From assembly GCF_041146345.1 (NCBI RefSeq), contig NW_027191409.1, positions 1,674,001-1,738,000 on the forward strand: 64,000 bases of DNA. Reading direction: 5' to 3'. The notes under the pieces are model-generated. The model was not told the origin of the DNA, did no database searches, and saw nothing but the letters and a program-made list of their open reading frames with translations. The position numbers and the translations under genes were made by a program. Positions 3,606 through 64,000 of the stretch are shown here, one piece after another; position 1 is the first letter of the stretch, and each line of letters starts with the position of its first letter. The stretch comes from Neodothiora populina (lineage: Eukaryota).

Positions 3606-6600
3606 TCAAGAAGTCCCCAAAGCACTACCCCTCCGTTTCTGGGTCTTCTTTCTCTTGTTATCATTCTTAGCACCACCGCTGAGCAGACCAACCAGCAACG
3701 AAGCTCTCCTCTTCTTATCGCTCGAACCACTACCGCTCTTCTTCTTTTTGCTCTTGCTCGCCTTCGAAGCAGAAGAGGAAGCTGTGGGAAGAGTGTTACT
3801 CGAAGAATGTCTCCTGCTGATCAATGCGTCTTTCCAGCTGGGCTTTGAGTACGCTCTGTTGCTTTTCGCTGCGAGATCTAGCCCGCTGCTGCTTCGTCGA
3901 CGCATCAGTTCGGGAGAGCTGACGGATGATCGGCCTAGTGAGGGACTTTGCAGAGATTTGGATTTCTTCGCTGAGGAGACTATTGTGAGTCTGGGAGGCG
4001 GCATCGCGTCGTTGTTCGCTTCGGGTTCTGGCGCTTGTGATCTGTCGTGGTGGTGGTCGAAACGGAATGACTCGGACAGGTCACTGTCGTCGCTGAGCTT
4101 ATGATTTCTCTGCGAGAACGGCGACGGAGACCTGCCTCTTCGCGACAAAGGGAAGGGAGGCGCCATCTCTTGCAGCGGGAGTCTATCGGACATGTCATCT
4201 TCGACCCTGGCTGACTGCATCGCATGTCGTTGAGGAGAACGGAGACTGGGTAGGTCGTCCATTGCTCGGCTTGACTCCTCCAGCAATTGCAGGCTGGGCC
4301 CGTCCAGCTCTTTCTGCAAGTCAGACACGTGCGTCCAAGTACCTGGTGCGTCACCCTGGAAGTACTGCCCGTTAGCGTACGCCATATCGCGCGCATCGTC
4401 CATATCCATCATGTAGTCATCATCATCTTCCTCTTCGCTGTCATCGTGGCCGTCACCCTGCTGTGCCACGTGGGTATGCGGGAGTGATGGCGATGGGCTG
4501 CGGTATATTTCCGAATTATTCATCTCCTCGACATCGCTGTCATCGTTGTGATGCATAGAGATGTTTGCTTCGGACGCCTTCATCGACGGAGACTCGACTA
4601 GAGCTAGCGCTTCAACAAAGTCCTCGTCATCAGGCTGCAACGCGGAATCGCGCTCTTCGTCAACGTCACCCTTGTTGGCGTCCTCAGCAGGAGACCCAGT
4701 GACCTTTGTCTTGCCACTCAGAACATCTAGTATGAGTGCTGTCGTCTCCTCTGTACCCTTACTTGCGTGTGACAGGCGATCGGGCAAAGACGCACTCGGC
4801 ACATTGTCATGATTTTCAACAGCCGGTGACTCTGAGACCACTGCTGCGGGCTGAGACGAGCGCTGCATGGCCGAAGCCGGTTTACTGGCATGTGCTGGTG
4901 CTGTAACAGGTCGATCTGGCGAATCATGCCTCTGCAGAGATGGCGAAGGACTGGGTTGATCAGAAGACGTTGTCAAGGGTTTTGGAGTCGCACGGTCTTC
5001 TTGACTCGATGGGACATGCACGCTCTGCTCTGCACTGGCGGAAGCTGGAAGGACAGCATGTACATCAGGCTCAGGTAGTGCTGTCGTAGCACTATTCGTC
5101 GCAACAACATCGTCGTCATCCCCTGCCATTTCCTCGTTTCCATCATTTTCGTTGGCTGCAGGGGTACGTGATTGTACATCGTCCGTCGCGCCAACATCAG
5201 CAGGTGGCGGCGAGCTGCGAAAGGCCTGAGACGACCTCTCCGCCAATTCAGTGAGAGTTTCGTCATCCAGATCAGAGTCACTATAAGTCGACGACTCGTC
5301 GTCTGAGATGAAAATGGAGACTGGAGCTCGGGGTCGGGACGAAACTGCCGTGTTTGGTGTGCTGCGCGTGGTTCGTTGTGGAAAAGACAGAGTGCTCTGC
5401 CGGGTTTTGCTATTGACTCTTTTCAGTGCAGAGGTAATCGAGGATTGCTTGCGCTTTATAGGCGAAGAAAACGATCTGTTCGAGTCGTGCTTGGACGACT
5501 TCTCAGGCCGAGGCTGGGTCAAAGCAAAGCGTTCTGCGTCGCCCTCTTGTGATGCGATGGCCATTTGTAATGAATAGGGTGATTTGGTCTTCACGATGGA
5601 CGCATCAGAATCATCAGGTCCGGGGGTCTGTCCAGATGGAGGAGCTTTCTTTTGCTGAGACATGCCTGGAGAGTCCGTCTTTCTCTTTTTAGGTACAGGA
5701 ATCACAACTTCGACAATCGTAGACGTCTTTCGCTTTTGGCTTTCAGGTTCCCGTCGAGTATCTGCGGTCCGTGGCTGCGCCTTTGCCACTGGTTGCGACG
5801 GGTCAGATGAAGCATCTCGCGACAGTTTTGATCGGGTAACTCGTGGTTGCACGGTGGCCACTTCGGTTCCGATGCGACTAGGAGCAGGTTTTCTCGGTGG
5901 AGACTTGACCGCTCTTCCAGAAGCTTTGTCAGCCTCTGCCTGGCTGGCCCACTCGCGATATTCTCGCCAGTAAAGCCGCTCATTCTTGAGGTCCTCGGCG
6001 AGACGACGGGATTTGATCTCGTCTTCTCTTTGCTGCAGCTCCTCGACCTGAGAACTTAGTCTGTTGTTCCTATCTGCTCGTTCTCGGGCCTCAGATGTTC
6101 GTGCTCGGTCATTGGCGAGTCTCTGGCTCAACCGATGCTCTTGGTTTCTGTCTTCGGCGTACTTCCTCGCATCAAGTCGCAGCTGCTGACGTTTCTCTTC
6201 GACACCCTGGCGTGTGCACTGGTCGAGACTATTCATGATGAGCTGCGGATTGAGGGCATCGGAAGCTGACGCTTGACTAGCAGTGAATTCAGCAGAGCCG
6301 GCAGGAGGTTGAGACGGAGAAGATTGCGAGTTCAGAACTTTCGAGGCCTTTCGCCGTGCGTCCTGATATAACTTTGCGGCCAGCGACTTAGCTCGCTCCT
6401 GACGGTCCAGCGGAAAGTAGTCCTTGAGAAACCTCTTCATCTCCACGTTCTCGAGTCTGGCGGCTAGCAGCAGATGTTCTTCATACGGCTTGAACCTCTC
6501 GCCTGGCGCACTTGGCGGTTCGTTCTTTTCTTCGAGGAACTTGACTCGTTCGGCAGCGTGCTTCTCGGCGTCAGCGTGTTCGACTCGACGGTGTATCTCG

Positions 6601-8192
6601 GCAAAGTGGATCTTGACACTGTCTTGGGTTCTGGTGGGATAACGTCGATCGTGCAGGCTTCTCCAGTCCTGACCTTCTCTGATTGCACGAACGAAAATGT
6701 CGTCGTCTCCTTCGGACCAGACGGAAGGTGTAGCTCCTTGCTTTGGCGTGGGTCGGCGGTGTGTAGTTTCTTTTGGCCTGTGGCTAGATTCGACTTCGAC
6801 GACTGGTGTGAATCTAGAGGAGGCGGTGCCGTGGACTGGAGTCTGTATAGGCTCTTCGGACCCAGTCTCGACTGGTCGGACACTGTTGTTCGAAGCATTG
6901 TCCTTTGACTCTTCTGATTCCAGCCTCTCGAGCGTTTGCTTCCGAGCTTTTATCTCGGGAGAGTGATTCTTTTGGATGTTACTGATCTTCTTCCGGACGC
7001 TGTCCCAAGTCCGCTGCGGAAAGTGTCTCTCATGAATGGTGCGATTGGCGAGGCCGCGGGCGATGGCCGTCACCAGTGTGTCCGTGTCCTTCTCGGTCCA
7101 CGACCGTGCAAGATTTGACTTGCGCTGTGATTCGAGTCTGGCGTTGCAAGAGGGTTTAGCAGCAGAGGCTTCGATACCAGAAGAGGGCGGAGCGTCGGGC
7201 TGTTGGGTGAGATCTGGATTTTCGCCGCGACTCAGACGACGTCGACGAAGCTTCTCTAGAGCCTTACTCGGGAGAACAGGCTGTCGGACTTGCCGAGGTC
7301 GACTGCTTGGTGTCGTAGGGTGGTGTCGATGATTGGCTTCTCCGTCGTCTTCGATGGGGTCTTGGATGGGGTCTTGGATGGGGTCTTCGATGGCGATGTC
7401 GCCTCGATCAGGTGTGGGACTGGAGGGTCGTGGACTGGCGACCTGACGAGCTTCAGACTGCGGCGAATCAGGGATTTCCAGTCGCCTTGTCGCTAAGAGC
7501 GGCTTCTTGAAGACAACAGAGTCGTCGTTGTCGAGAGAACGAGGGGTCAGTTGAGTGTTGTCCTTGTCAGGAGTTGTGTGCGCATCATTCCCAATGCGTC
7601 CAACCATGACACTCAATGCTTGCGCTTTGTCTGCTGCAGCTCGACGGAGATCACGGTCTGGTGTCTCGGACACGCGCACCCTCGGCCTCTTGCTACGGGG
7701 AGCTGTGTCTTGCTCTTGTTCTCGTCGCTGCTCGCCCGACTCGACTGGGTGGTCAGGATCAAGACCGGCGGCCACGGTTCCATAGCGCGCTTCCTGCCGC
7801 CGCAGCTTCGCATGTTCTTGCAGAAGCTTATCGTCAAGACGTCGGGCCTGATCCTGTGGTTGCAGGTATGATCCCTCGGGCACCGTCTCCTCGCGATGCG
7901 ACAGCCTCTGCACGACCTGAATGACGCATCGCGCTCTGTCCTCGCCGGCAAAGACATCTCCCACGCTGTCGCCGAGACTGATGTCCGCGCCATAGGCATC
8001 CTGGATCTTCTTGAACACCCAGTCGTCGTGTCTCGGGTAGTCTCGCTGGTAGCGCGTCAGGATCTGTTTCCAGGCGACCAAGAAGGTGAGCTCGGGCGGG
8101 AGATTGATCAAGAACGAGGCGGCAGCTGGAGGATTCGGCGCATCTTGCGGCGGCAGGACTCTGACAGTCAAATGGATCTTGGGGGATGCCAT
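3606..8192 (-). CDS. Large nuclear/nucleolar protein: Net1/Tof2/Dnt1-like N-terminal domain, 2-3 Myb/SANT-like repeats, long disordered tail
   Basis: Single ORF; first ATG at 8192 (MASPKIHLTVRVLPP). FLINLP..LTF..AWKQI..RY..YP..KKIQDAYGADISLGDSVGDVF resembles the Net1/Dnt1 N-terminus. WTEKDTDTL..FPQRTWDSVRKK and WSEGDDDIF..YPTRTQDSVK are Myb-like. Lys-rich C-terminus. Confidence 0.7.
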   Translation of the reverse strand: MASPKIHLTVRVLPPQDAPNPPAAASFLINLPPELTFLVAWKQILTRYQRDYPRHDDWVFKKIQDAYGADISLGDSVGDVFAGEDRARCVIQVVQRLSHREETVPEGSYLQPQDQARRLDDKLLQEHAKLRRQEARYGTVAAGLDPDHPVESGEQRREQEQDTAPRSKRPRVRVSETPDRDLRRAAADKAQALSVMVGRIGNDAHTTPDKDNTQLTPRSLDNDDSVVFKKPLLATRRLEIPDSPQSEARQVASPRPSSPTPDRGDIAIEDPIQDPIQDPIEDDGEANHRHHPTTPSSRPRQVRQPVLPSKALEKLRRRRLSRGENPDLTQQPDAPPSSGIEASAAKPSCNARLESQRKSNLARSWTEKDTDTLVTAIARGLANRTIHERHFPQRTWDSVRKKISNIQKNHSPEIKARKQTLERLESEESKDNASNNSVRPVETGSEEPIQTPVHGTASSRFTPVVEVESSHRPKETTHRRPTPKQGATPSVWSEGDDDIFVRAIREGQDWRSLHDRRYPTRTQDSVKIHFAEIHRRVEHADAEKHAAERVKFLEEKNEPPSAPGERFKPYEEHLLLAARLENVEMKRFLKDYFPLDRQERAKSLAAKLYQDARRKASKVLNSQSSPSQPPAGSAEFTASQASASDALNPQLIMNSLDQCTRQGVEEKRQQLRLDARKYAEDRNQEHRLSQRLANDRARTSEARERADRNNRLSSQVEELQQREDEIKSRRLAEDLKNERLYWREYREWASQAEADKASGRAVKSPPRKPAPSRIGTEVATVQPRVTRSKLSRDASSDPSQPVAKAQPRTADTRREPESQKRKTSTIVEVVIPVPKKRKTDSPGMSQQKKAPPSGQTPGPDDSDASIVKTKSPYSLQMAIASQEGDAERFALTQPRPEKSSKHDSNRSFSSPIKRKQSSITSALKRVNSKTRQSTLSFPQRTTRSTPNTAVSSRPRAPVSIFISDDESSTYSDSDLDDETLTELAERSSQAFRSSPPPADVGATDDVQSRTPAANENDGNEEMAGDDDDVVATNSATTALPEPDVHAVLPASASAEQSVHVPSSQEDRATPKPLTTSSDQPSPSPSLQRHDSPDRPVTAPAHASKPASAMQRSSQPAAVVSESPAVENHDNVPSASLPDRLSHASKGTEETTALILDVLSGKTKVTGSPAEDANKGDVDEERDSALQPDDEDFVEALALVESPSMKASEANISMHHNDDSDVEEMNNSEIYRSPSPSLPHTHVAQQGDGHDDSEEEDDDDYMMDMDDARDMAYANGQYFQGDAPGTWTHVSDLQKELDGPSLQLLEESSRAMDDLPSLRSPQRHAMQSARVEDDMSDRLPLQEMAPPFPLSRRGRSPSPFSQRNHKLSDDSDLSESFRFDHHHDRSQAPEPEANNDAMPPPRLTIVSSAKKSKSLQSPSLGRSSVSSPELMRRRSSSGLDLAAKSNRAYSKPSWKDALISRRHSSSNTLPTASSSASKASKSKKKKSGSGSSDKKRRASLLVGLLSGGAKNDNKRKKTQKRRGSALGTS

Positions 8193-8391
8193 TTTGTCTC
8201 GGATGGGAGGATGGGTGAGGGTGGGTGTGTGCCACGGAAGGAGGCGTTCAGTCAATGTTCATGTAGCTAGTACAAAAGCGGATGGCTTTGTCTTGTCAGT
8301 AATGCCCTAGAGGGCTCCTGCAGTCATTCAGGCAGCCAATGGACGATATTGTGAAACGGTGATAGCAAGAGCGCAGTGATGGAAGACAGAG

Positions 8392-17688: not shown

Positions 17689-19248
17689 ATGAACGCAATG
17701 CATATGGGTCAGGCATTCCTGCCAGACGCCATCCCATTGCATTGCCACATCTGTCCCGAAAAACCCGATTTCAGCGATGTTTCTCATCTGCTCACCCATA
17801 TCGCCAGCAAGGGTCATCTTTCGACTTACTACAAAATCAAAGTCAAGGCGTCCAGCGAGGAGGCGTTTCGTCAGCTCATCCGAGACTACGACACTTGGTA
17901 TGCTCAATGGCACATCGAGGATCTCATGTCGAACCGGTTGAGCCAAAAGGAGAAGCGTAACGCCAAGTTGCGCAGTGCAAGCAATTCCATGCCTGGTAAG
18001 TTGACATTGAGTATCCCTAATTCTCGACCGTATTGACGTGTTGTGACAGCACCTACGACCCACTACCAGATGCAGCCAGCCTACGCACTTTTCCCCGGCG
18101 GATCCCAGCATGAACATGCAGTCGATCCACGTCTCGCCCTCCACCCGATGGTCAAGACCGAGGCGCTGCCCCGTGGTGCAACATCCATGAATACGTCGTA
18201 TGCCGACTCAACAAACACCCAGGGTCACCAGCATTCCTACACCAATGCCATGCCGCTTTGGCACCCTGCCCCTTATATGTTTGTCCCTGCAGCATCGGAG
18301 GGCCAGGTTGAAACTTCCAGCGAGGCCTCGTTTGTGCCCGGACTTGGACCAAACATGGTTCCTTTCCAACAGGCTCAGAGTCAATCCATTGGTGAAAGCG
18401 ATGAGCAAGGCGAGGAGAACAAGGGTCAAAGCAAGATTAAGGGAGTTGTGTGGCCTGGCATGGATATGTTTGACGCGGCACCCCTCGAGCAGAGGCGCAA
18501 GAGAAACCAGAAGAAGGACACCTCAGTCGTGAAGCAACTCGAGGCTGCATCCAAGACGATTGAAGCCATTGAGAACATCTACAGCGCCGACGGCACCCTC
18601 TGCAGGTCTCGCCCGATCCCAGCCCTGCCAGATGACGGCGACAGCCCGCTTCCCGGAGAGGAAACGCCTCCCCGTATCAAGAAAGCAAAAGGAGCCCCTC
18701 GGAAGAAGGCCTTGGATCGCGACGAAGCCCAGGCCGATCGGACCGCGGCTACCAGGCACCAGCGCAGAGGCCGGGCTAGACGGGCGGCTGTCACAGACAG
18801 TCATCAGCCTTCACAAGACACGGTGGGCGGCGTTGGCGGCGTCGTTGACGGGGGCACCGACAGGGGCACCGACAGGCGACAGATGGGGGCACAAACAGCC
18901 CGCACCGAGGCTACCTTTGACAGTCCCGCCACAATGGCCACTCTGACTTCTGGGTTCTGTCCACCAGCGCCGCCTGATCAAGGGAGTGACACCAGACTTC
19001 CTCTGCTTGCCAACTATGGGTCTAACGATGCAGCTTACTTTGCACCCCAGACATTCTACCCATGCCAGGGATTCTATGCCAACACCTTTGGGCTTGACCA
19101 GCAAGCCCTGCCATCGTGGGACCTGTATGCTCACGACAGCACCGGTCCCGGAATCGTCAACCCTCTGTACCTCGGTATGCAGCAGGGAGGCAACGTTGGC
19201 GGAAGTGATGACCAGCAGACGGTGTCGATTCCAAGCTCTGAGCAGTGA
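17689..19248 (+). CDS. Uncharacterised Pezizomycotina protein with an N-terminal C2H2/U1-type zinc finger; intron 17996-18049
   Basis: CHICP..FSDVSHLLTHIASKGH finger, plus a KIKGVVWPGMDMFD..RRKRNQKKD block that I recognise from fungal hypothetical proteins. Frames join across GTAAGT..ACAG. Confidence 0.75.
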
Positions 19249-20199
19249 GCTGCATTGCTCGAGGTCCTTTCACCAATGAGGATAGGCAGTATCTACTAGT
19301 GCATACCGCCGTCTCGATTGCGGCCAAGGGGATCTCGCTGCTCGAAGTGCCCGTCATGATGCTTGCCATAGTGGACCTTTTTACTTGCTTCTATCACCAA
19401 TGGCTTATGGTTATGACGACGATGAATTGTACGATAGGAGACGACAGACGAAACATGCGACAGGGGATATGGGAGATGATGGGGAAAAACAATGCAGGCA
19501 GCAGAATTCAGGTGTTTGTTCTGCTGGTCAAGGAACAGACGACGGACATGATCTTGTTTCTTTACAGACACAAAAGAAGGGAGGGCATATACTTGACTTT
19601 TGCCTTTACTCTACCTAGCATGAAATTCTATCCAGAGAGGATATAATACCGATTCGGGAAGTTTGCTCAGGAGATTGATGTGACGTTATACAAAGGGGAT
19701 GGGATAACAGGAGTTTGGGGATGAAAGATGACTTGTACAGTACATAGCCATCACTGTAGCTGGACGACCTTTGCGATCCAATGTATGATAATAGAAATGC
19801 TGTCACGCTGAGACGCCGAGACCAGCGCCGAGACTCGAGTTTCTGACGATCATATGTTCAAAGCTGTAGTGCGAGGCTTGGTGTGAGCATGTGAAAATGT
19901 AGTGTAGACTTGGGAAAATGTGTGGTTTCAGAGTATGAGATGCAGTATATGATTGAGATGTATGATATATAAGGTATGAAAGAGGCGTCCGTGTGGCTGT
20001 GGAGAGGTTGTGGAGAAGGCTTCCTTCGGGGGCTTTAACCCGTTCTGGCCATTTGACGGGACGCCAGTATGCCAAGGACGGAGATATAATTCTCATGTCC
20101 GCGATTGGCTTTACTGTGTTAAAGAAAAAAGAAGAATCATCTACTTTGTAGTGACGATTGATTTTTTTATCTCATTTTCCGGTGATATCCATCATCGTC

Positions 20200-21750
20200 A
20201 TGGCTACCGTTGTGCCACCAGCGTCGAAACGCCAGAAGACGGCAGCCTCAGCGCGCGCCCGAGAGCAGATTCTGCCAGAGCAAGTGCCGCAGGGAATACA
20301 ACGCATTCAGTTCACGGATGCAGACACTGGCGAAGCACAAGGACCCGTCACAGCAATTCCCCTGTCTGATCTGAGTCCCAAGAATCTTTCTCTCCTTCTC
20401 AATACTCTGTTAGGACGTGAAGATCCCGGAGAGCGACTACCCTATCGGTTCTACAATCCTCTGGGCGATGGCGACTTTGACCAGCAGGCCATCATCTCTG
20501 CCTTTTTATCTGGGGACTCGACCACTGAAGTACAACTGAATATCCCGTGTCGTGCAGAGGCTGTGTTTAGAGTAAAGGCCGTGACGCGGTGCTCGGCCAG
20601 TATCAGCGGACATGGCGAGTCCATCCTCGCAACTCAGTTCTCACCCTCGACATCATCGCGTCTGGCGACTGGAAGCGGAGACAAGACGGCGCGCATCTGG
20701 GACTGCGACACGGGAACCCCCTTACACACTCTCGGTGGACACACTGGCTGGGTGCTGGCCGTCAGCTTTTCCCCCAATGGCCAGATCCTCGCCACAGGCA
20801 GCATGGACAACACAGTGCGATTATGGGATCCTGCCACCGGCAAGCAGCTCGGCGGCCCTCTGAAAGGACACACAAAGTGGGTGACGTCTCTTTCGTGGGA
20901 GCCCTATCACATGCAACAGAGTGGACGACCGCGTCTGGCGTCGGCGTCAAAAGACGGCACAGTCAGGATCTGGGACTGCACGAACAAGCGAGCAGACGGC
21001 GCCCTGACCGGCCACAAAGGCTGCGTCTCGTGCGTCAAGTGGGGCGGCACAGGACATATATACACGGCGAGCCACGACAAGACAATCAAAGTCTGGGACG
21101 CCGACACGCAACGCCTGATCCACACTCTCTCCGCGCACGCACACTGGGTCAACCATCTGGCGCTATCGACCGACTTCGCCCTGCGCACCGCATACCACGA
21201 CCACACGGGCAAGAAGGGCGTGCCGGAAACCGAAGACGAGAAGCGCGCCAAAGCAAAAGAGCGCTTCGAAACAGCCGCAGGAGTCAACACCCACAATAAC
21301 GAAGGCAAGCTCGTCGAGCGCCTCGTCTCCGCCAGCGACGACTGCACAATCTACCTGTGGAACCCGGCGCAGTCGACGAAACCCATCACGAGGCTGCTCG
21401 GCCATCAGAAACAGGTCAACCACGTGACTTTCTCGCCCGACGGGCTACTGCTCGCCTCGGCGGGCTTCGACAACTTGATCAAGCTGTGGAACGCCGCCGA
21501 CGGAACCTTTATCTCAACTCTCAAAGGTCACGTCGGCCCCGTGTATCAAGTCGCATTCAGCGCCGACAGTCGTCTTCTAGTCAGTGGAAGCAAGGACACG
21601 ACGCTCAAGGTCTGGGACGTCAAGACGGGGAAGCTGAAGGAGGATCTGCCGGGCCACAAGGATCAGGTGTTTGCTGTTGACTGGAGTCCTGATGGCGATC
21701 GTGTGGGCTCTGGAGGCCAGGATAAGCAGGTTCGCATCTGGTGTCATTAG
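20200..21750 (+). CDS. RSA4: Ribosome assembly protein 4 / Notchless homolog (NLE domain + WD40)
   Basis: MATVVPPASKRQK, AVFRVKAVTRCS..ISGHG, multiple GH..WD repeats, HAHWVNHLALSTDF, DLPGHKDQVFAVDWSPDG. Confidence 0.96.
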   Translation: MATVVPPASKRQKTAASARAREQILPEQVPQGIQRIQFTDADTGEAQGPVTAIPLSDLSPKNLSLLLNTLLGREDPGERLPYRFYNPLGDGDFDQQAIISAFLSGDSTTEVQLNIPCRAEAVFRVKAVTRCSASISGHGESILATQFSPSTSSRLATGSGDKTARIWDCDTGTPLHTLGGHTGWVLAVSFSPNGQILATGSMDNTVRLWDPATGKQLGGPLKGHTKWVTSLSWEPYHMQQSGRPRLASASKDGTVRIWDCTNKRADGALTGHKGCVSCVKWGGTGHIYTASHDKTIKVWDADTQRLIHTLSAHAHWVNHLALSTDFALRTAYHDHTGKKGVPETEDEKRAKAKERFETAAGVNTHNNEGKLVERLVSASDDCTIYLWNPAQSTKPITRLLGHQKQVNHVTFSPDGLLLASAGFDNLIKLWNAADGTFISTLKGHVGPVYQVAFSADSRLLVSGSKDTTLKVWDVKTGKLKEDLPGHKDQVFAVDWSPDGDRVGSGGQDKQVRIWCH

Positions 21751-33826: not shown

Positions 33827-36057
33827 CTAGTCTTCCACAGGCTTCATCGACTGATCCTGATAGTGACTGGCGTTGTCGTTGCCGAAAAGAGGTTCGTCCA
33901 CTGCGCCTCCCATCTTGACAAACTCCTTTGGATCTCTCTCGTGGCCTGGCGTGATCTCTTGCTTCTTCGCTTCTGTCTTTTCAGAGGGCGTCGTCTTGTC
34001 GTTGTTCTTTTCCCACACCTTGACCTTGGTGTGCTCCTTGTCTCCAGCGTCGATCACCTTGACAACACTGACGTCGTTGAGAGAGCTCAGTAGCGTCCTC
34101 TCGCGCACTGGCTTTCTCTTCGAAAAGTCAAGTTTGCCCATTGCTCCAGTCAGTCCGTCTGTGCTCTCCATACTGGCTCCCGGGTTGATCACGCCATCTT
34201 TGCCAGGGGGGCCACCCACCTGCCCTGTGGTCCAAGGGTGTTCGAGACACTCGTCGATGCTGATTCTCTTTTCCACATCCACAGTCAACATTTTGTCGAT
34301 CAAGTCCAGAGCCGGATCGCCCACACTGTCCCAGTAAGGGCTGGGGTAATCGAATCGGCCTAGCTTGATCTGTTGGCTGAGGTTATATGGGTTGTCGCGG
34401 GTGCAAAGTTCGTCACTGAACGGCGGAAAGCCGCAGAGACAGATATACAACACCACACCGAGTGACCATACGTCTACGGCCCGAGTGTATCGTCGACGGT
34501 TGCCAGGCTCGAGAATCTCCGGCGCCACATATGATGGTGTTCCGCAAAGCGTCGAAGTGAAGGACTCCTCTCCAATGATCTTGGCAAGGCCAAAGTCTGC
34601 AATCTTGACGTGAAGATCTTTGTCGATGAGTAGAATATTCTCCGGCTTAATGTCACGATGTACTATGTTACGTTCATGCTAGAGATAAAACCGTCAGTAA
34701 GTCTGCGTGACTGGTAGTAGACATACAAAACTTACCAGATACTTCATGCCTTGGAATAGCTGAACAAAAATCTTCCGCGTATCGGCTTCGCTCAACTTCT
34801 GCTTGGCAACGATCCAATTGAAGAGCTCTCCCTCTGGCGCAAGTTCCAGAACCAAGTAGACACCATCCGTCTCGTCGTACGTGTCCTTCAGACACAGCAC
34901 ATTCGGATGAGAAACGCCCATCAGCACTGCGATTTCCTGCTGCAGACCCTCGACTCTGCTCTTTTCCTCTGCTGCTTGTGAATTGCCCACTCGGCGCTTT
35001 TCGAATCGCTTGACTGCGTATTGAAGGCCGGAACATTTCTCGGTGCAAAGGAAGACCGTGGCAAAGTGACCCTTGCCCAATTGACCTTGGATGGTGTACT
35101 GCTGTCTGAATCCGTTGCTGTCACGTACACGAGGATAGCGGAAGATGAAGCGAGCGGCGTCCAGGACCGAGACCTCGTCGCCGTCCTGGAGATCGCGGCG
35201 CTTGTTCCGTCCAACGTAAGCGTCGTTGACGTAGGTACCATTTCCGGAAAGGTCTTCGAGCACAGCTATACTGTCGCCGTTCTTGTTTTCGTTGAACAAA
35301 AGACAATGTCGGTTGCTGACTGTGGGGGAATGGATGACGCGATCTGTATTGTAGAATTAGAAAACAGCGCTGGCATGTGACTGAAAGTCATGTGGAAACA
35401 TACCACACTCGGGATGTCTGCCCAACAAGTAGCCTCCAGCAGGCACACCCTTGGTAGCCTTTTCGCTCTCGTAGTTGTTCTCTTGCTCCGTGTACTCGCT
35501 AGTCTTGACCTTGTTCTTTCCGGTGGTCTTGCCGACCTTATCCCCAGACACCGGGCATGCCGCTCTTTTCCTCAGGACAAGGACTTTGCTGCTCTTGGCG
35601 TCACCTTCGACAGGAATCAGATAGCCCCAGACACCTTCGGCCTCCTCATCTTCGACCTCGTAGGAAATGGGAGGCGGGGGCAGAAACTGGCTGTACGGTT
35701 GAGTGTCTGAAGGGGGCGAGTTGAGACCGGACTGAATGGGCGACGAGTCCGGTGTGGGCTGACGGTCCTGGTGCCGGGACTCGACTGGAGGAGTCTTTGT
35801 CTGTTCTTCGGTCGAGTTGGACGCTTTGCGAGTGACGGGCGAAGGCAAGTGGGTCTGGGCGAGTCTGTCTCTGTCTGTAGCATCGGGTTTTCCGGACAGG
35901 CGATCGGATCTTCGAGGCTTCTTCTGTGAGTCGCTGGCGGCATCATCACTGGAGCCCTGTGTGATGAAGCAGATGAGTAAATTGGTTCAAGTCAATGCTT
36001 TACGAGATTGCGACTGACCCTGGCTCGCTTGAGGCTCTGTTCTTTCGATTGCGGCAT
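33827..36057 (-). CDS. CHK2: Checkpoint kinase Chk2/Cds1/Dun1 family (FHA + Ser/Thr kinase); 4 exons
   Basis: MPQSKEQSLKRAR|..KKPRRSDRL, TQ/SQ sites, FHA (YLLGRHPEC..SNRHC..LEDLSGNGTYVN), kinase GKGHFATV, HRDIKPEN, DFG, CGTPSYVAPE. Confidence 0.93.
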
Positions 36058-57725: not shown

Positions 57726-60171
57726 CTAGAAGGCTGTGTCGTCTACCTCTGCGTCTGGTTCTGCATCCGCATTCGCGTCCGCTTCGAGAAATTCAGAGAA
57801 AGTAATCTCTGGAAGGGAGTCATCGACAAGACCATCATTGTTGACTTGGTCCGCGACTTGATACGAAGACTCTGTGAACTGAGATGGTTCAGTGATCTGA
57901 CGAGGTCCTGTGAGCTGAAGAGGTCCGGCGGCTTGAGCAAGACCGGCGAGCTGAGGAGGTGCGACCATTTGAGCCGGAGCAGCGACTTGAGGAGCTCCAG
58001 CGAGTTGAAACGGTGCGGCGGCGGGATCATGAGGAGGGATTGGACCATACATCTGTACATTGTTGTACATGCCAGGGTCAGAAAGCTGGTAGGTGTCGAA
58101 ATAGGTTCCAGCTGCGTGATTTCCGATTGCTGGGTTACCGCCGTTGTAAGAGGGAGTGGTGAACTGAGATGGTTCGGCAAAATCACAAGTTTGGAAGGGT
58201 CCATTTGCAGGTACGCCGAGATCATAAGTAGATCCAAAATTCTGCACTGGGGCTATGTAGCTCTGAATTGGAGCAGGGCCAAATGCTTGATTACCGTTGT
58301 AGTAGTTGACTCCGGGTATCATCTGCGAAGTGTTGGCCAGACCATAAGGTTGGACAAGTCCTTGTCCTCCTCCACTTTGATAATGGGTGGGTCCAGAGAC
58401 AAGAGGTACATCGTTTTGAACCTCTGGAGCAATATTCTCAGTTCCAGGAACATCTGCGTCGGAGAATTGAGATGGATCAAACAAAATCTCGTCGGTGATA
58501 GTCTCGTCTATTTCTGGAAGCTGCATAGGAGCACCATCTCCTTCTGGCATGACGAAATCCGCGCTAGCGAGATGCGAAGGATCAATGACCTCTTCACTCG
58601 CGACGTTTGCCTCCCCAGCGAGCAGCAATGGGCCGATGTCACCCTCAGGGGCGACAACGTTGATGCTAGGCAGCTGGAGTGGCTCGAGACTCTCAGGGAA
58701 CGGGCCTCCAGGCAGAGCGGTCCGGGGCATAATGACATTCCCGTTGTACTGTGGATTGTGGAGAGCAGTGTATTGTCCAGGGGCACGGGGATCATTGGTC
58801 TGCTGGTTGTATGAGGTCAACGAAATGTCGGCGGGCCTAAAGGTCTGTTGGTTGTACGCGTTTGACAACATGTCAGCGGTGCCGGAGGTCTGCTGATTGT
58901 ACAGGTTTGACGACACGTCAGCGAGCCCAACGGTCTGGCCGCTAGCACCCTGGTTGACAGAGAGGATGGCAGGATCGATGGTGACTACATTGCGAAAACC
59001 ATGGTCGTGGGCGTTACTGGCTGGTAAGTGGGATGGGAACGGGTTGTAGCTTGACGGAGCCATGTATGAGTTGTAGCCATGTTGCTCGATGTCAACACTG
59101 TTGTTGTGTGGCTGAATGTAGTTTACTTGAGGAACGTCTGAACCAAGGGACTGGCCCACAGCAGGATTTGGCAGAAGCAGAGACTGCTGTACCTGGTTTG
59201 ATCTACCCAAGACAATTGGCTCATTGCTGCCAGGAAAAGTGTTGTCACGAAGCAGGGGTTCTCCTCCATAGGAATTCCACTGAGGAGCCTGAGCCGAGTT
59301 CTGAGTGGGGGCGACTGGTGGATAAGTAGATGCCAGAGGCTGGATTGCCGTCGTCTGGCCTATCTGTCCCTCGGTCTGGAGGTCTGCTGTGGAGTTCTGC
59401 AGTAATTGTGCAATAAGACGCTCACGTACAGCGGCGCATGAGCGAAGAACTGAAAACATGGCGGAATTCGGATCCAGAGGTTCAGTCAAGACCTGGAAAC
59501 CTGGCTGCATAGAAGTCTGACCCGCATCTTGATCAGCACCCTCTATCCTAGTAGAGTCACGCCCACTAAGGTCGAAATTTATCACGAAGGGGTTTTCGTG
59601 CTTAGCCCGCTTGCGATTGCTTCTGCAATAAAGGCATTGAAAGTCAGCAACAGTTACGCTTACGCATTGAATAGAGCGAGCAAACGTACGAACGCCTCTT
59701 TGCAGGCTCAACTTTAGAAAATTCAGTCGCACTACCAGTCGCGTCTTGCTCGGCGATCTCGGCGGCCTCGGCGGCAGCAGCCCTTTGGTCGCGTATAGTA
59801 GCCGCCAACTCTAGGAGTTTGTCCTGCTCGGCGGCCTCAGCGCTTCCAGCAGCAGCAGTGCTTTGGTTACCTATAGCAGCCGCTGACTCTAGGACTTTGT
59901 CCTGCTCGGCGATCTCGGCGGCCTTGACGGCAGCAGCCCTTTGGTCGCGTATAGTAGCCGCCAACTCTAGGAGTTCTTCCTGCTCAGTGCTGTGTTTTGT
60001 TGTTACATGGTCAAAGAGGTTCTTGCGCCTGGTATAGATGCGCTTAGGACATTTAGGACAAATCCAGACCTTGCCTCTATGAGTTGCCATGTGGTCTAAA
60101 AAATGGCTCTGCCGAGTGTAGTTTTTACCACAGTTATCGCAAACAAATGGCCCCGACGACATGGTGTTCAT
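57726..60171 (-). CDS. C2H2 zinc-finger transcription factor (2 fingers, long Q/P/N-rich activation-like region); intron near 59689-59623
   Basis: FVCDNCGKNYTRQSHFLDHMATH and WICPKCPKRIYTRRKNLFDHVTTKH fingers; splice KRRS|SNRKRAK gives an NLS-like stretch; acidic C-terminus. Confidence 0.8.
59743..59985. repeat. 78-bp coding tandem repeat, about 3.1 copies (26-aa helical unit)
   Basis: Units start at 59743, 59821, 59899 and (partial) 59977. Units 1 and 3 share an identical block of about 47 nt. Confidence 0.92.
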
Positions 60172-62122
60172 ACGCGATTTTAGTTGCGATAGCGATGAAG
60201 ATGACGATTCGATTACGATGGCGATATTAGCAGCAAAATGAGGAAAAAAAGTGTTTGTGAAGTAGTAAGTGAAGGTGAGGTTAGACCCTCAATCATAGGT
60301 TATGGTGTTTGTGTTTTGTTTACGCATCGCTCGCCGAGCATCGCTCATATAGATATGAGATGTTTTTGTCAGTGCCCTGAGCCATGTGGTAAGGGTCCGC
60401 AGACCTAGATGACTCTGTCCTCAAGGACTTTCGGCCTCTGTCTCTAGTCTTTGCAGTGTCCGCATCCCGCTTTGTCCTGTTATCCATAGGGACTTACTTA
60501 TCCAGCTTACATAGAGTCTACTTAGCCTCGTAGAATCATTCGTAAAGGAGAAGAGTGACTATTTCTTAAATGCTCCAATGTGCTTTTGATAGAGCGAAGT
60601 ACCCTCTGTATGGAACACAGAATCAATAAGGGATGTTGACGCTTTCCTTACCAGGTCAAGGAGGAAACTTGTGATGTAGCCTCTCGAACTGAAGAGCTGT
60701 CTGACTAGATAAGCAATGAGAGATTACCTAGTGATCGTTGGCTGCCTTCATAACACCTTGATGCTGGTAAGATGACATTGTTCACGCCCCGTGGCGGTGT
60801 TGCTATGCACAACCAAGATGTATACAACCTTTGAGCATGCACGAAGATCATGCAATGCTTTCCCATGTAATCTGCGGCTTCTCGTCGCTATAACATCTGT
60901 TTTGATGGGGCAAAGAAGGACATAGGTATGTCTGTAGCAACAGATCGAGCAAGTCGACTTTTGATGTATTGACACGTGCAGACAACAGGCGGGCACGTTG
61001 GCCATATCCTCAGTGCTCATAGACTCGACTGCTCAATCAAGGCATGATTCATGTCCTCAGACTGCTGAAACAATTCGATGTCTGTTATCCGAAGGAAGAA
61101 GGGGCGAAATTATTGGATACGGCTCGGTGGCCTCAAGAGACCTTAAAGTCGTTGTAATCCTAGGCTCCAACATCAAAGACAGCCGTGCTACAAACATAGA
61201 TTCAGTATGAAAGATATCAGCCAAGTCACAGTACACGAGGGTCATCTTGTATGATGGCATAGAAGTGAATATAGCACACTCTAATGCTATCAACTCATCG
61301 AGGGCGTAAATACTACGCGCATACAGAGAGGATCGCGACACGCGTTCCATAGCAGTTGTGTCGGAATCTCAGAAACGTGTCGGCTATGTGTACAGATTTG
61401 ATCTATTTCACCACGCGACAGACAAACTTATCTGCACAGGTCGCACATTTGTAAGGTTTTTGGAGAATGAATTTTGGTACTGGAAAAACTGTGCCAGTCC
61501 ACAGTGGCGTTGCAAGTCGATCGGATTGTATGACTAAGCATATCCGCGAATTCATCACCCGCCTTCGATTGGGCACCACACCCATACAGTCTTGCGACGG
61601 CTATCATACAGGGACCAAATGCCGTTTATGGATTCAACGATGTGATCAAGTAGATCAACAAAAGAATTGAGGTCACGCATGTGGTATGCGCAATGATAGA
61701 GGGTACATATAGATCCAGTAGCGCCGACGGTGGCCAACCAATCATCTCTACAGCTCCACGAATCAGATGCCCGAAGTCGATCTGTTGTGCAACACATGTT
61801 CTTGTCAAAAATTTGCGCCACGTTCTGCAGTACAAATCAGGCTACATCTCCACATCAGCGATGGGACTACGAATAAGGTCTTCAGGATGGACGAGGTAGT
61901 ATCCGTTCGTCCAGGGGTCCAGTCGCAGAGGGCTGCACCTGTGAAGATCAACATTAAAGCAGCCGATCTGGCTATAGACCAGGCTAGGATCTAGTAAGAG
62001 CTGGGTCATAGTATAGCCACTGACGATTTTAGCAAGCGGACAAGGAAGCTCAAAAGTAAGATTGATCTGTATGCCAAAAACTGTTCTCCAGGGGAATAAA
62101 ACCATTGATTCTTCCAAGCCAC

Positions 62123-62876
62123 TCATCTCCGACCTCTGAACATTTCGGCGTTTAGATCAGTGTTCTGATAGCCCATAAAGGTGACTGCATCTCCGTTCAC
62201 TGTGACTCCACTGACGTCCAATTGGAAATCAAGATTCCGCAATTCCCCGGCGGCATTCGTGATCCCCATTATCGCATACGCGGACTCGCTGATTTTGACG
62301 TCGTCAATCTTCACACCTGTGCGCTTGGATTGAGACTGCTTGTAAACCGACTCGCAAGCGGACTTGTGATGCCGCCAGGCCCTCTGCTCATCACATACGA
62401 AGTCGATTATGTTCCGAGTACCTCTCCTATCTGCACGACTTCTGACATTTGCTTTCAGTTTTTGAAGTTGTTCCTCAACCTTTTGTGACTCATCAATTTT
62501 CACTTCCGCATTTTTGATCAGCTGCAGCATACTCTTCTCTTGTTCTTGCAAGACAGTACTGACATCGTCAGTAACTCGGCCCTGATGGGGCTGGACATGG
62601 CTGTAGAAGGCATTAGCTGAGTATCAAATCGTAAAATATGGGCGAAGGAACGAACAGAAGAGACGTGTTGTTAGCGATGTCTAGCGTCAGTTTGCAAGCA
62701 CCCAGCTGACCATTGGAAGAGCCGATCGCGTGCGTCTCGAAGGCCATGTGAATGCGGTCTTCGAGACTTCTCTGCGAAGCCCTAGAGACCTTAGACCAGC
62801 TTTCCAAGAAAGACTGCAAGGCCTCACAACAATCACCGCAGGCGTTGACCGTTTCTGCTAGTCTCATATCTGACAT
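62123..62876 (-). pseudogene. 5'-truncated HeLo-like/SesA-type ('fungal N-terminal domain of STAND') protein with a C-terminal two-repeat HET-s-like amyloid motif; intron 62655-62601
   Basis: LAETVNACGDCC..L..W...SLEDR..LGACKLTLDIA helical segment, a clean 55-nt intron (GTTCGT..GCTAAT..TACAG), a coiled segment, then VKIDDVKISESAYAIMG / LDVSGVTVNGDAVTFMG pseudo-repeats. The usual hydrophobic N-terminal helix is absent. Confidence 0.65.
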
Positions 62877-63345
62877 GGCAGTATCCGGAGGTTGGTATGG
62901 TGGGGATCCGTTTTCATATGTAGGGGAATCTGATGATGATGCAGCAGCGATAGTCAAATTGCTGTTGGACACTAGGAAGGTCAATATGGACTCGAAAGAT
63001 GACTCCGGCCGGACACCGCTATCGTTCGCAGCAGGACTTTGGTATGGCGCAGGCGCAGCAAGAGTCAAAATCCTGTTAGACACTAATCAGGTCGACATTG
63101 ATTCCAAGGATGCGTCAGGCCGGACACCGTTATGGTACGCAATAGAGGAAGGATTAATCTTGTCAACAGATTCGACAGTCGTTCGTATGCTACTCCACAC
63201 CGGCAAAGTCGACGTGGAGGCTATGGATCACATAGGCCAAACACCACTGGGGAATGCAGAGCAGCAGGGCATGGTGGAGATTGTCAAGTTGATGCACGGG
63301 TATATGGAAGCATCAGGTCATTCTTGCGAGATCTGTCCAGAGTGA
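62875..63345 (+). pseudogene. Ankyrin-repeat fragment (3-4 repeats) of the type found at the C-terminus of fungal NACHT-ANK NLRs
   Basis: IVKLLLDTRKVNMDSKDDSGRTPLSFAA, VKILLDTNQVDIDSKDASGRTPLWYA, VVRMLLHTGKVDVEAMDHIGQTPL. Begins mid-repeat; no NACHT domain upstream. Confidence 0.8.
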
Positions 63346-64000
63346 AGGCCAGTCCTTCCCAAGATAGTCATAGGATACGTCAGATTGAATTCCAGTAAGC
63401 AAGCATTTGCCATGGTCAAGTCCAGTAATCAAGCATTAGACGTCTTAGACTTGTTGTGCGTGTGAGGCATGCCCTCTCGCAGGACGCCGGAACACTCGAC
63501 GAGGTTGACAAGCTAAAATACAAGTGGGTTTCGGGGCATGCTATGGAGCCATTCTTGGTATTACCTTGAAGAGTTGGGGGCACTCAATGGTTGAATTGAG
63601 CGACAGCTCAGAAAGGACAAATTGAGAGATTTGCTAGTCAATAGCAGAGGCGGAGAGTTGTCAATAGTGTACCTTAAGGTAAGGTACAGGTAGGTATTAA
63701 CAACAACAAGTTGTGAAACGTCAAAGTGAGAAGCTTGGCGGTGGGATGGCGAGGCTCGAGCTCCAGTTTGAGATTGGCTGGAGATGTTCTTGTGGTGGAA
63801 GAGACGAAATGTGAGATTAAAGTTGGTGGAATTGCGGAGTAGAAGGCGCAGGTGCATTCATTTCCAGCAGTTTGAGAGTTTGGGGCAACTGGCGGGAAGG
63901 AGGTGGAGCGTGCAGCGCAACGTCAGAGACGGGAATTTGTGGCAGCAGCAAGTAACAATAGCAGTGACGGCAGAGATTCACTTGGTTGATAACAATAATT

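Follow-up and report, generated by a model that had tools for sequence, protein, structure and literature searches.

In Podospora anserina, the nwd2/het-S system pairs a nucleotide-binding oligomerization domain-like receptor (NLR), which carries one N-terminal 21-residue motif, with a HeLo effector that carries two C-terminal repeats. The het-s and nwd2 genes are described as divergently transcribed neighbours, and other pairs as tandem (PMC3321046). HET-s-related amyloid motifs (HRAMs) are reported as C-terminal elements of HeLo and HeLo-like (PF17111) proteins whose genes lie beside NLR genes (PMC9815663), and PMC4518210 gives an adjacent NLR with one motif copy for 98 of 155 HRAM effectors. 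Here we describe a locus in the genome of the fungus Neodothiora populina, near the end of a stretch of 64,000 nucleotides (contig NW_027191409.1, positions 1,674,001 to 1,738,000; referred to below, as a whole, as the window). It holds what appear to be the remains of such a pair: an effector gene and an NLR gene which have both lost their 5′ parts, and which meet head to head.

Two open reading frames (ORFs) lie back to back in the last 2 kb of the window, and their starts share the palindrome CATG at 62874-62877. The gene on the minus strand (62876-62123) encodes the putative effector, and the ORF on the plus strand (62875-63345) encodes ankyrin repeats; these are the positions given by an earlier reading of the sequence on its own (the sequence-only reading). 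The resemblance to nwd2/het-S lies in the effector, where a helical death-type domain is followed by two 21-residue pseudo-repeats (r1 and r2) joined by a loop, and in the neighbour, which carries an NLR-type repeat array and is placed head to head with the effector gene, as described for the Podospora pair (PMC3321046). The locus differs from nwd2/het-S in that the effector domain is PF17111 and not HeLo (PF14479), the tail is unmatched by PF11558, the neighbour has ankyrin instead of WD40 repeats, and the receptor motif, the NACHT domain and about the first 69 positions of the effector domain are all absent. HELLP is likewise a HeLo-like effector under a neighbouring NLR, the NB-ARC-TPR protein PNT1, via a common amyloid motif (PMC5485727, PMC12881547), but that motif is a single pseudo-palindromic PP motif centred on Q, whereas the effector described here has two HET-s-like repeats and no Ses_B match. 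HET-s, the cytotoxic-dead prion allele of HET-S, also combines a disabled killing domain with a retained amyloid tail (PMC12881547). However, HET-s keeps its full length and is distinguished from HET-S by substitutions, whereas the present effector lacks some 69 domain positions and its prion behaviour is hypothetical. The locus is a decayed example of an already described NLR/effector amyloid-signalling system.

Both pieces can be identified, both are truncated, and the junction between them is sharp. In the simplest history, a single deletion struck an amyloid-signalling pair of the nwd2/het-S type whose NLR and effector genes were divergent, and it is towards this history that we cautiously lean. 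We infer that the effector and the ankyrin piece once belonged together as a cognate pair, and that the junction goes back to one deletion. The ancestor would have had two divergently transcribed genes, one for a HeLo-like (PF17111) cell-death protein with two C-terminal HET-s-related 21-residue repeats, and the other for an NLR with a single N-terminal motif copy, a NACHT-type NTPase and ankyrin repeats. One deletion, with its ends at about 62865-62877, would have taken the first ~70 codons of the effector and the shared promoter region, and the same deletion would have taken the motif, the NACHT domain and most of the ankyrins of the NLR.

Contigs of three public sequencing runs (X1, X2 and X3, of which X2 comes from the same sample as X1) were aligned to positions 58000-64000 of the window. 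The features of the locus are as follows.

61823 to 62122, minus strand: 3′ untranslated region of the effector transcript; the end of an X2 contig marks a poly(A) site at 61823
62123 to 62600, minus strand: effector exon 2 with the stop codon (62125-62123), encoding a long helical region and the amyloid-like tail
62165 to 62227, minus strand: pseudo-repeat r2, 21 residues, 36.6 bits; it follows a 10-residue loop and precedes a short tail with a conserved aromatic residue
62258 to 62320, minus strand: pseudo-repeat r1, 21 residues, 37.3 bits to the repeat model, with G at motif position 19
62417 to 62861, minus strand: partial PF17111 domain (PigL_N / Helo_like_N), residues 3-132 of the 229-residue isoform aligned to positions 70-201 of the 209-position profile
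62601 to 62655, minus strand: effector intron, 55 nucleotides, phase 2 (GTTCGT...CTAAT...CAG)
62656 to 62876, minus strand: effector exon 1, with in-frame ATGs at 62876, at 62867 (start of the 229-residue isoform) and at the MAFETH codon (start of the 189-residue isoform)
62865 to 62877, no strand: junction, 13 nucleotides including the shared CATG, between the last PF17111-homologous base and the first ankyrin-similar base
62875 to 63345, plus strand: ankyrin-repeat ORF, 156 codons (frame open from 62752), Ank_2 match with an expectation value (E) of 1e-20
62947 to 63003, plus strand: partial ankyrin unit 1, matching positions 15-33 of the NLR-unit model
63007 to 63114, plus strand: ankyrin unit 2, matching the NLR-unit model
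63118 to 63231, plus strand: ankyrin unit 3, matching the NLR-unit model
63235 to 63291, plus strand: ankyrin half unit 4, matching the NLR-unit model

The coding sequence of the effector runs from 62876 to 62656 and from 62600 to 62126, giving 232 codons from the first ATG and 229 from the ATG chosen by the annotators. Its product is letter-identical to the Neodothiora populina hypothetical protein AAFC00_003901, for which isoforms of 229 and 189 residues are on record, and the exon 2 product is identical to residues 32-189 of protein P0122. Against Pfam, the 229-residue isoform matches PF17111 at 29.1 bits (gathering cut-off 27.2; E 7.7e-7), and exon 1 alone scores 24.1 bits. PF17111 is PigL_N (formerly Helo_like_N), a 'fungal N-terminal domain of STAND proteins'. 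Only two residues of the protein lie ahead of the match, which starts at profile position 70. When the frame was extended upstream, where it is antisense to the ankyrin sequence and contains no ATG before a stop at 63087-63089, the match still started at profile position 69 (69-132). Profile positions 1-69 therefore have no counterpart, and the effector does not contain a complete PF17111 domain. The sequence-only reading had the effector without its N-terminal helix and called for comparison with HeLo-like profiles; its claim holds in the form that the first 69 of 209 PF17111 positions are missing from a match that lies above the cut-off. The nearest clusters by features in the ESM Atlas are PF17111 proteins whose representatives have 279-289 residues, against 229-232 here (score 0.86). 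As a lead only, these lengths agree with the loss of some 50-70 residues from the effector. For HET-S and HELL proteins, reviews attribute an important role in targeting to membranes and in cell death to the helix at the extreme N-terminus (PMC12881547). Lacking its extreme N-terminal part and a triggering receptor, the effector remnant probably can no longer kill, while its tail may still adopt the amyloid fold.

The ankyrin ORF was compared with a model built from 58 34-residue units, taken from ten of the best NLR matches. It holds about 3.5 units: the first is partial, the next two are full, and a half unit precedes the C-terminus. Over 87 nucleotides, units 1 and 2 are 77% alike in DNA sequence, and 62887-62900 resembles 63034-63047 at 12 of 14 nucleotides. 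Ahead of the first unit match is a stretch that may be either the degenerate beginning of a unit or a duplicate of the 'WYG' insert in unit 2. Under either reading, the ORF does not open with a complete unit, a cap or another domain. The proposal that this ORF starts inside a repeat, which had been drawn from a WYG comparison, is borne out by the first unit, which matches model positions 15-33 only, and by the 12 of 14 nucleotides.

The 120 best matches longer than 273 residues are 34-54% identical to the ankyrin ORF, and 101 of them contain NPHP3_N (PF24883) and/or NACHT (PF05729), according to a hand count in which the domain names were verified on four matches. By the same count, these ankyrins resemble NLR arrays best, as had been proposed. 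When 11 NLRs were compared with the window by tblastn, 116 of the 117 matches fell on 62815-63339, all of them from ankyrin parts. The piece aligns to the extreme C-termini of NLRs, for example to residues 1361-1500 of the 1500 residues of P0002. Among proteins of 85-273 residues, none was more than 55% identical to the ankyrin ORF and none was the window's own. The exact ORF was also absent from a protein collection holding the annotated proteins of this genome. As regards the make-up of an NLR, C-terminal NLR-associated ankyrins are present, and neither NACHT nor NB-ARC was found, the ORF and its flanks holding ankyrin repeats only. From its sequence, we read the ankyrin ORF as what probably remains of the 3′ part of an NLR gene.

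PF17111 homology starts at 62864 and runs downward, and ankyrin similarity starts at about 62877 and runs upward. The sequence-only reading had stated that no intergenic DNA lies between the two genes. This is nominal as far as the ORF starts go, the plus-strand frame being open from an earlier ATG at 62752; what stands is that the homology boundaries are 13 nucleotides apart. An assembly artefact could produce such a head-to-head join. An independent reassembly of run X1 spans 60245-64000 in one 4776-nucleotide contig at depth 40, and a 324-nucleotide contig from the second run, X2, covers 62776-63090; both bridge the junction, and neither has a joint there. X1 may be the window's own source sample, and is then not independent; its bridge therefore excludes an assembler error, and not more than that as regards independent biology. 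Misassembly, which had been raised for checking, is thus excluded as far as contigs can show, and we regard an artefact as extremely improbable.

The last 70 residues of the effector consist of the two 21-residue pseudo-repeats with the 10-residue loop between them. With positions numbered as for HRAMs by Daskalov et al. (PMC4518210), each repeat places G at position 19 and has a hydrophobic core at positions 5, 8, 10, 16 and 18. The arrangement is that of an HRAM, two related repeats of ~21 residues that end a HeLo, HeLo-like or SesA protein, with a loop in the range of 6-18 residues. In the four family members whose tails were compared, the hydrophobic core is present in 8/8 repeats, G19 in 7/8 and N at position 22 in 8/8, and the loops have 9-11 residues. 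Aligning r1 with r2 gave seven pairs of opposite charge, all at positions 4, 6 or 7, and no pairs of the same sign; positions 4, 6 and 7 are among those for which charge complementarity is described in HRAMs (PMC4518210). The in-register r1/r2 score was reached by 11, 2, 9 and 0 of 20000 shuffles for the four members, in a register anchored on G..N which slightly favours the observed score. These controls indicate that the amyloid-like tail noticed in the sequence-only reading is a genuine internal repeat. This effector carries S-G at positions 6-7 of r2 (62165-62227, minus strand); in three relatives these positions are K-K or K-R and face acidic residues in r1. The effector thus lacks two predicted salt bridges between the repeats, a difference that could be decay or plain variation.

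With the five published HRAM subfamilies (PMC4518210), the tail shares the 21-residue repeats, G19, the hydrophobic core, a loop of 6-18 residues, an aromatic residue after r2, complementary charges at positions 4, 6 and 7, and a C-terminal location on a HeLo-like protein. It differs in an invariant N at position 22, giving G-x-x-N instead of G-N. The predicted motif fits none of the five subfamilies at positions 3 and 15, and judged by these residues it may merit a subfamily of its own. The strings GYQN, MGYQ and YQN were absent from all 155 HRAM proteins in the supplements of PMC4518210, and GYQN, MGYQ and MGITN did not occur in 11 of the 13 supplementary files of PMC9815663, a search that left out files 9 and 10, where the motif might be present. 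In the ESM Atlas, the model of the tail resembles the PF11558 part of a HeLo/HET-s cluster with a template modelling (TM) score of 0.63, over a short stretch of 63 residues, and the C-termini of PF17111 clusters with TM scores of 0.62-0.65; this structural resemblance is a lead only. AlphaFold 2 (AF2) gave low-confidence models for the whole effector (five alignment rows; mean predicted local distance difference test, pLDDT, 51.9) and for the tail (four rows; pLDDT 49.6), the latter with just two strands, over r1 and r2. A Foldseek search of the PDB with the low-confidence tail model returned nothing below E 3, and a sequence search of the PDB returned three weak, irrelevant matches.

A phmmer search with exon 2 against 1.84 billion representatives returned four matches at E up to 0.001. 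One is the effector itself; the other three are short ORFs on Logan contigs, with identities to it of 49, 47 and 46%. A cluster mate adds a fourth relative. The effector family is thus very small, with four relatives among the 1.84 billion representatives. In each of the relatives' ORFs, the first codon is an internal Met or lies past one, as expected of ORF calls at the exon level, and their real N-termini are therefore not visible. A word-index search with the 229-residue isoform returned its own cluster alone. In metagenomes, a scan with a three-row alignment gave 395 pattern matches, of which none was confirmed, and the DNA pattern for G-Y-Q-N-x-D-x-N-A-D/E gave 15 loci, all of which proved by tblastn to be chance matches of 10-43 residues. 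A locus with two weak matches (L013) was rejected as a garbled inverted-repeat contig.

Several sets of observations weigh against the deletion history; the first concerns the tail, and the others are taken up with the two alternatives below. The bare HRAM rule is of limited specificity, being satisfied by 2/1603 other six-frame pieces of the window, by 4/240 unrelated proteins and by 35/20000 shuffles of the effector protein. In its strict form, applied to both repeats, it holds for only two of the four family tails; r1 of P0127 has D at position 19, and r1 of P0125 is cut by the ORF start. The subfamily signatures are absent, position 3 being V/L (V/L/I/M in the family) and not N/Q/H, and position 15 being Y/V (aromatic or aliphatic in the family) and not R/K. 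No match to PF11558 (HET-s_218-289) was found in the effector at E up to 10, and none to Ses_B (PF17046) or NACHT_sigma. The missing PF11558 match is not decisive, because only 38 of 155 HRAM proteins are reported to match that profile (PMC4518210). No intact relative was seen among the four short ORFs, and for that reason both 'truncated' and 'pair' depend on models of the families and on statistics from the literature.

The second set bears on whether the two pieces ever belonged together. They could be unrelated fragments joined by an inversion, a translocation or the stray insertion of an NLR 3′ end, in which case the effector would still be truncated, while the ankyrin piece would come from some gene other than its receptor. 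The junction shows only two truncated coding pieces abutting, and what adjoins the effector is just an ankyrin remnant and not an NLR with the r0 motif found beside HRAM effectors. NLR ankyrin arrays are numerous, and 34-54% identity to them is generic for ankyrin repeats; moreover, 19 of the 120 best ankyrin matches lack a NACHT-type domain and have HET, a kinase or ankyrins only. PMC4518210 gives 57 of 155 HRAM effectors without an adjacent NLR. No NACHT relic was found in the window by tblastn with the 11 NLRs, and no third copy of the 21-residue motif in its six frames, the next best candidate scoring 5.3 bits (E 1.9) against 37 for r1 and r2. An r0 motif was likewise found neither in the N-termini nor elsewhere in the 120 best ankyrin matches. 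The lack of a NACHT relic and of a third motif in the window fits the deletion, and equally fits a cognate NLR that was never present. Only 655 nucleotides are visible past the ankyrin stop, and missing parts could lie past 64000. On the other hand, a union of unrelated fragments needs more events than one deletion. The flanks at 60.7-62.1 kb and 63.1-64.0 kb contain no recognisable domain, and no NACHT domain, N-terminal piece of PF17111 or transposon-like domain was seen in the flanks examined. The head-to-head order is also the exact residue that a collapsed divergent pair, arranged as reported for het-s and nwd2 (PMC3321046), would leave. We therefore think a chance union rather unlikely, and continue to favour the single deletion.

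The remaining set comes from transcripts and reading frames. One X2 contig skips 62601-62655, whose ends read CT..AC on the plus strand and hence GT..AG on the minus strand, as in an intron, and the annotated effector proteins read TSLL|HVQ across this joint. An intron of 64 nucleotides with the donor GTCTCT had been considered and was discarded, as the X2 contig shows the 55-nucleotide form instead. A second X2 contig stops at 61823, 300 nucleotides past the effector stop, with 12 non-templated T (plus strand); the genomic sequence before 61823 has no T-run, so that a poly(A) site is placed there. The splice skip and the T-run are features that RNA would show, although the type of run X2 is not on record; the DNA run X1 carries the unspliced form. 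X2 contigs leave 62030-62434, 62708-62775 and 63091-63345 uncovered, and X3 covers only 62883-63152 of the locus, so that neither informs on expression there. A low-depth X2 contig covers 62776-63090 and then goes on for nine letters that the 64 kb do not contain. After 63090 the plus strand of the genome shows GT, which follows codon 72 of the ankyrin ORF in phase 0. This break would reflect plus-strand splicing to an exon past 64000, or else an artefact at the tip of the contig.

These data would suit a locus in which nothing is broken, the effector being a naturally short PF17111 variant with a working tail and a receptor elsewhere, and the ankyrin ORF a small gene or a first exon. Because the effector is spliced, ends in a T-run and is annotated, in two isoforms, it may be a working gene. 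The Logan ORFs of its relatives also start late, at MLQL, their upstream exons not being visible, and a PF17111 cluster of 230 residues is among the Atlas matches. The ankyrin frame is intact, with a good ATG context; it is open over 156-197 codons and shows only in-frame insertions and deletions relative to the unit consensus. A plus-strand transcript could be spliced beyond the window at the GT directly after codon 72. However, the putative donor, GTCGAC, is weak, and any intron of the ankyrin ORF would exceed 900 nucleotides, because the nine loose letters occur nowhere in the window. The ORF starts in the middle of a unit, and it lacks an annotated product as well as an ortholog of comparable size. 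On the side of the effector, the PF17111 match begins at profile position 70 with two residues before it, and the N-terminal helix that would be lost is reported to be needed for membrane targeting and killing by HET-S and HELL (PMC12881547). An undamaged locus is accordingly unlikely in our estimation, and the single deletion remains the reading that we prefer.

A further idea starts from a truncated effector, and makes of it a natural, expressed and harmless carrier comparable to 'small s', with an amyloid-competent double repeat and without the membrane-targeting N-terminus and the receptor. We consider this very doubtful. If it were true, the protein could propagate as a prion, or serve as a decoy or sponge towards intact alleles of other strains by way of their matching motif, and the locus would represent a new element for allorecognition or against cell death, based on an HRAM subfamily that has not been described.

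Several other frames were noted in the window. The sole match of the NLR queries outside the effector/ankyrin locus lies at 34355-35080, via the kinase part of P0003; it belongs to a minus-strand locus (33827-35356) in which an FHA domain comes before a protein kinase domain that is split over two frames, in a checkpoint-kinase-like layout with an intron. A plus-strand frame of 531 codons (20155-21750) contains at least seven strong WD40 repeats (E 5e-79). The frames at 18037-19646, just upstream of it, contain no NACHT or NB-ARC, and it is therefore unlike an NLR of the NWD type. An uninterrupted minus-strand frame of 1550 codons (3606-8258) has no Pfam family above threshold, and a weak Myb-like match (E 2e-4, 21.9 against 24.4 bits). 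Closer to the effector, on the minus strand, are a C2H2 zinc-finger frame with an internally repeated alanine-rich segment (59644-60288) and an open frame of 694 codons without a Pfam match (57726-59810). At 59772-60249 the X1 reassembly breaks into small contigs of raised depth, as a repeat would cause.

Amyloid-templating NLR/effector pairs are a described part of fungal immunity and allorecognition, and the locus alone opens no new question about them, unless the effector stump behaves like the HET-s prion. What the locus adds is a Dothideomycete example with a PF17111 effector. It also illustrates how a pair may die, with both genes beheaded at one junction and the effector stump still found in spliced form. 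The locus serves as a warning for annotation, in which the effector stump passes for a normal protein while the ankyrin stump is missing altogether. It is, finally, a lead toward a possible intact pair in relatives.

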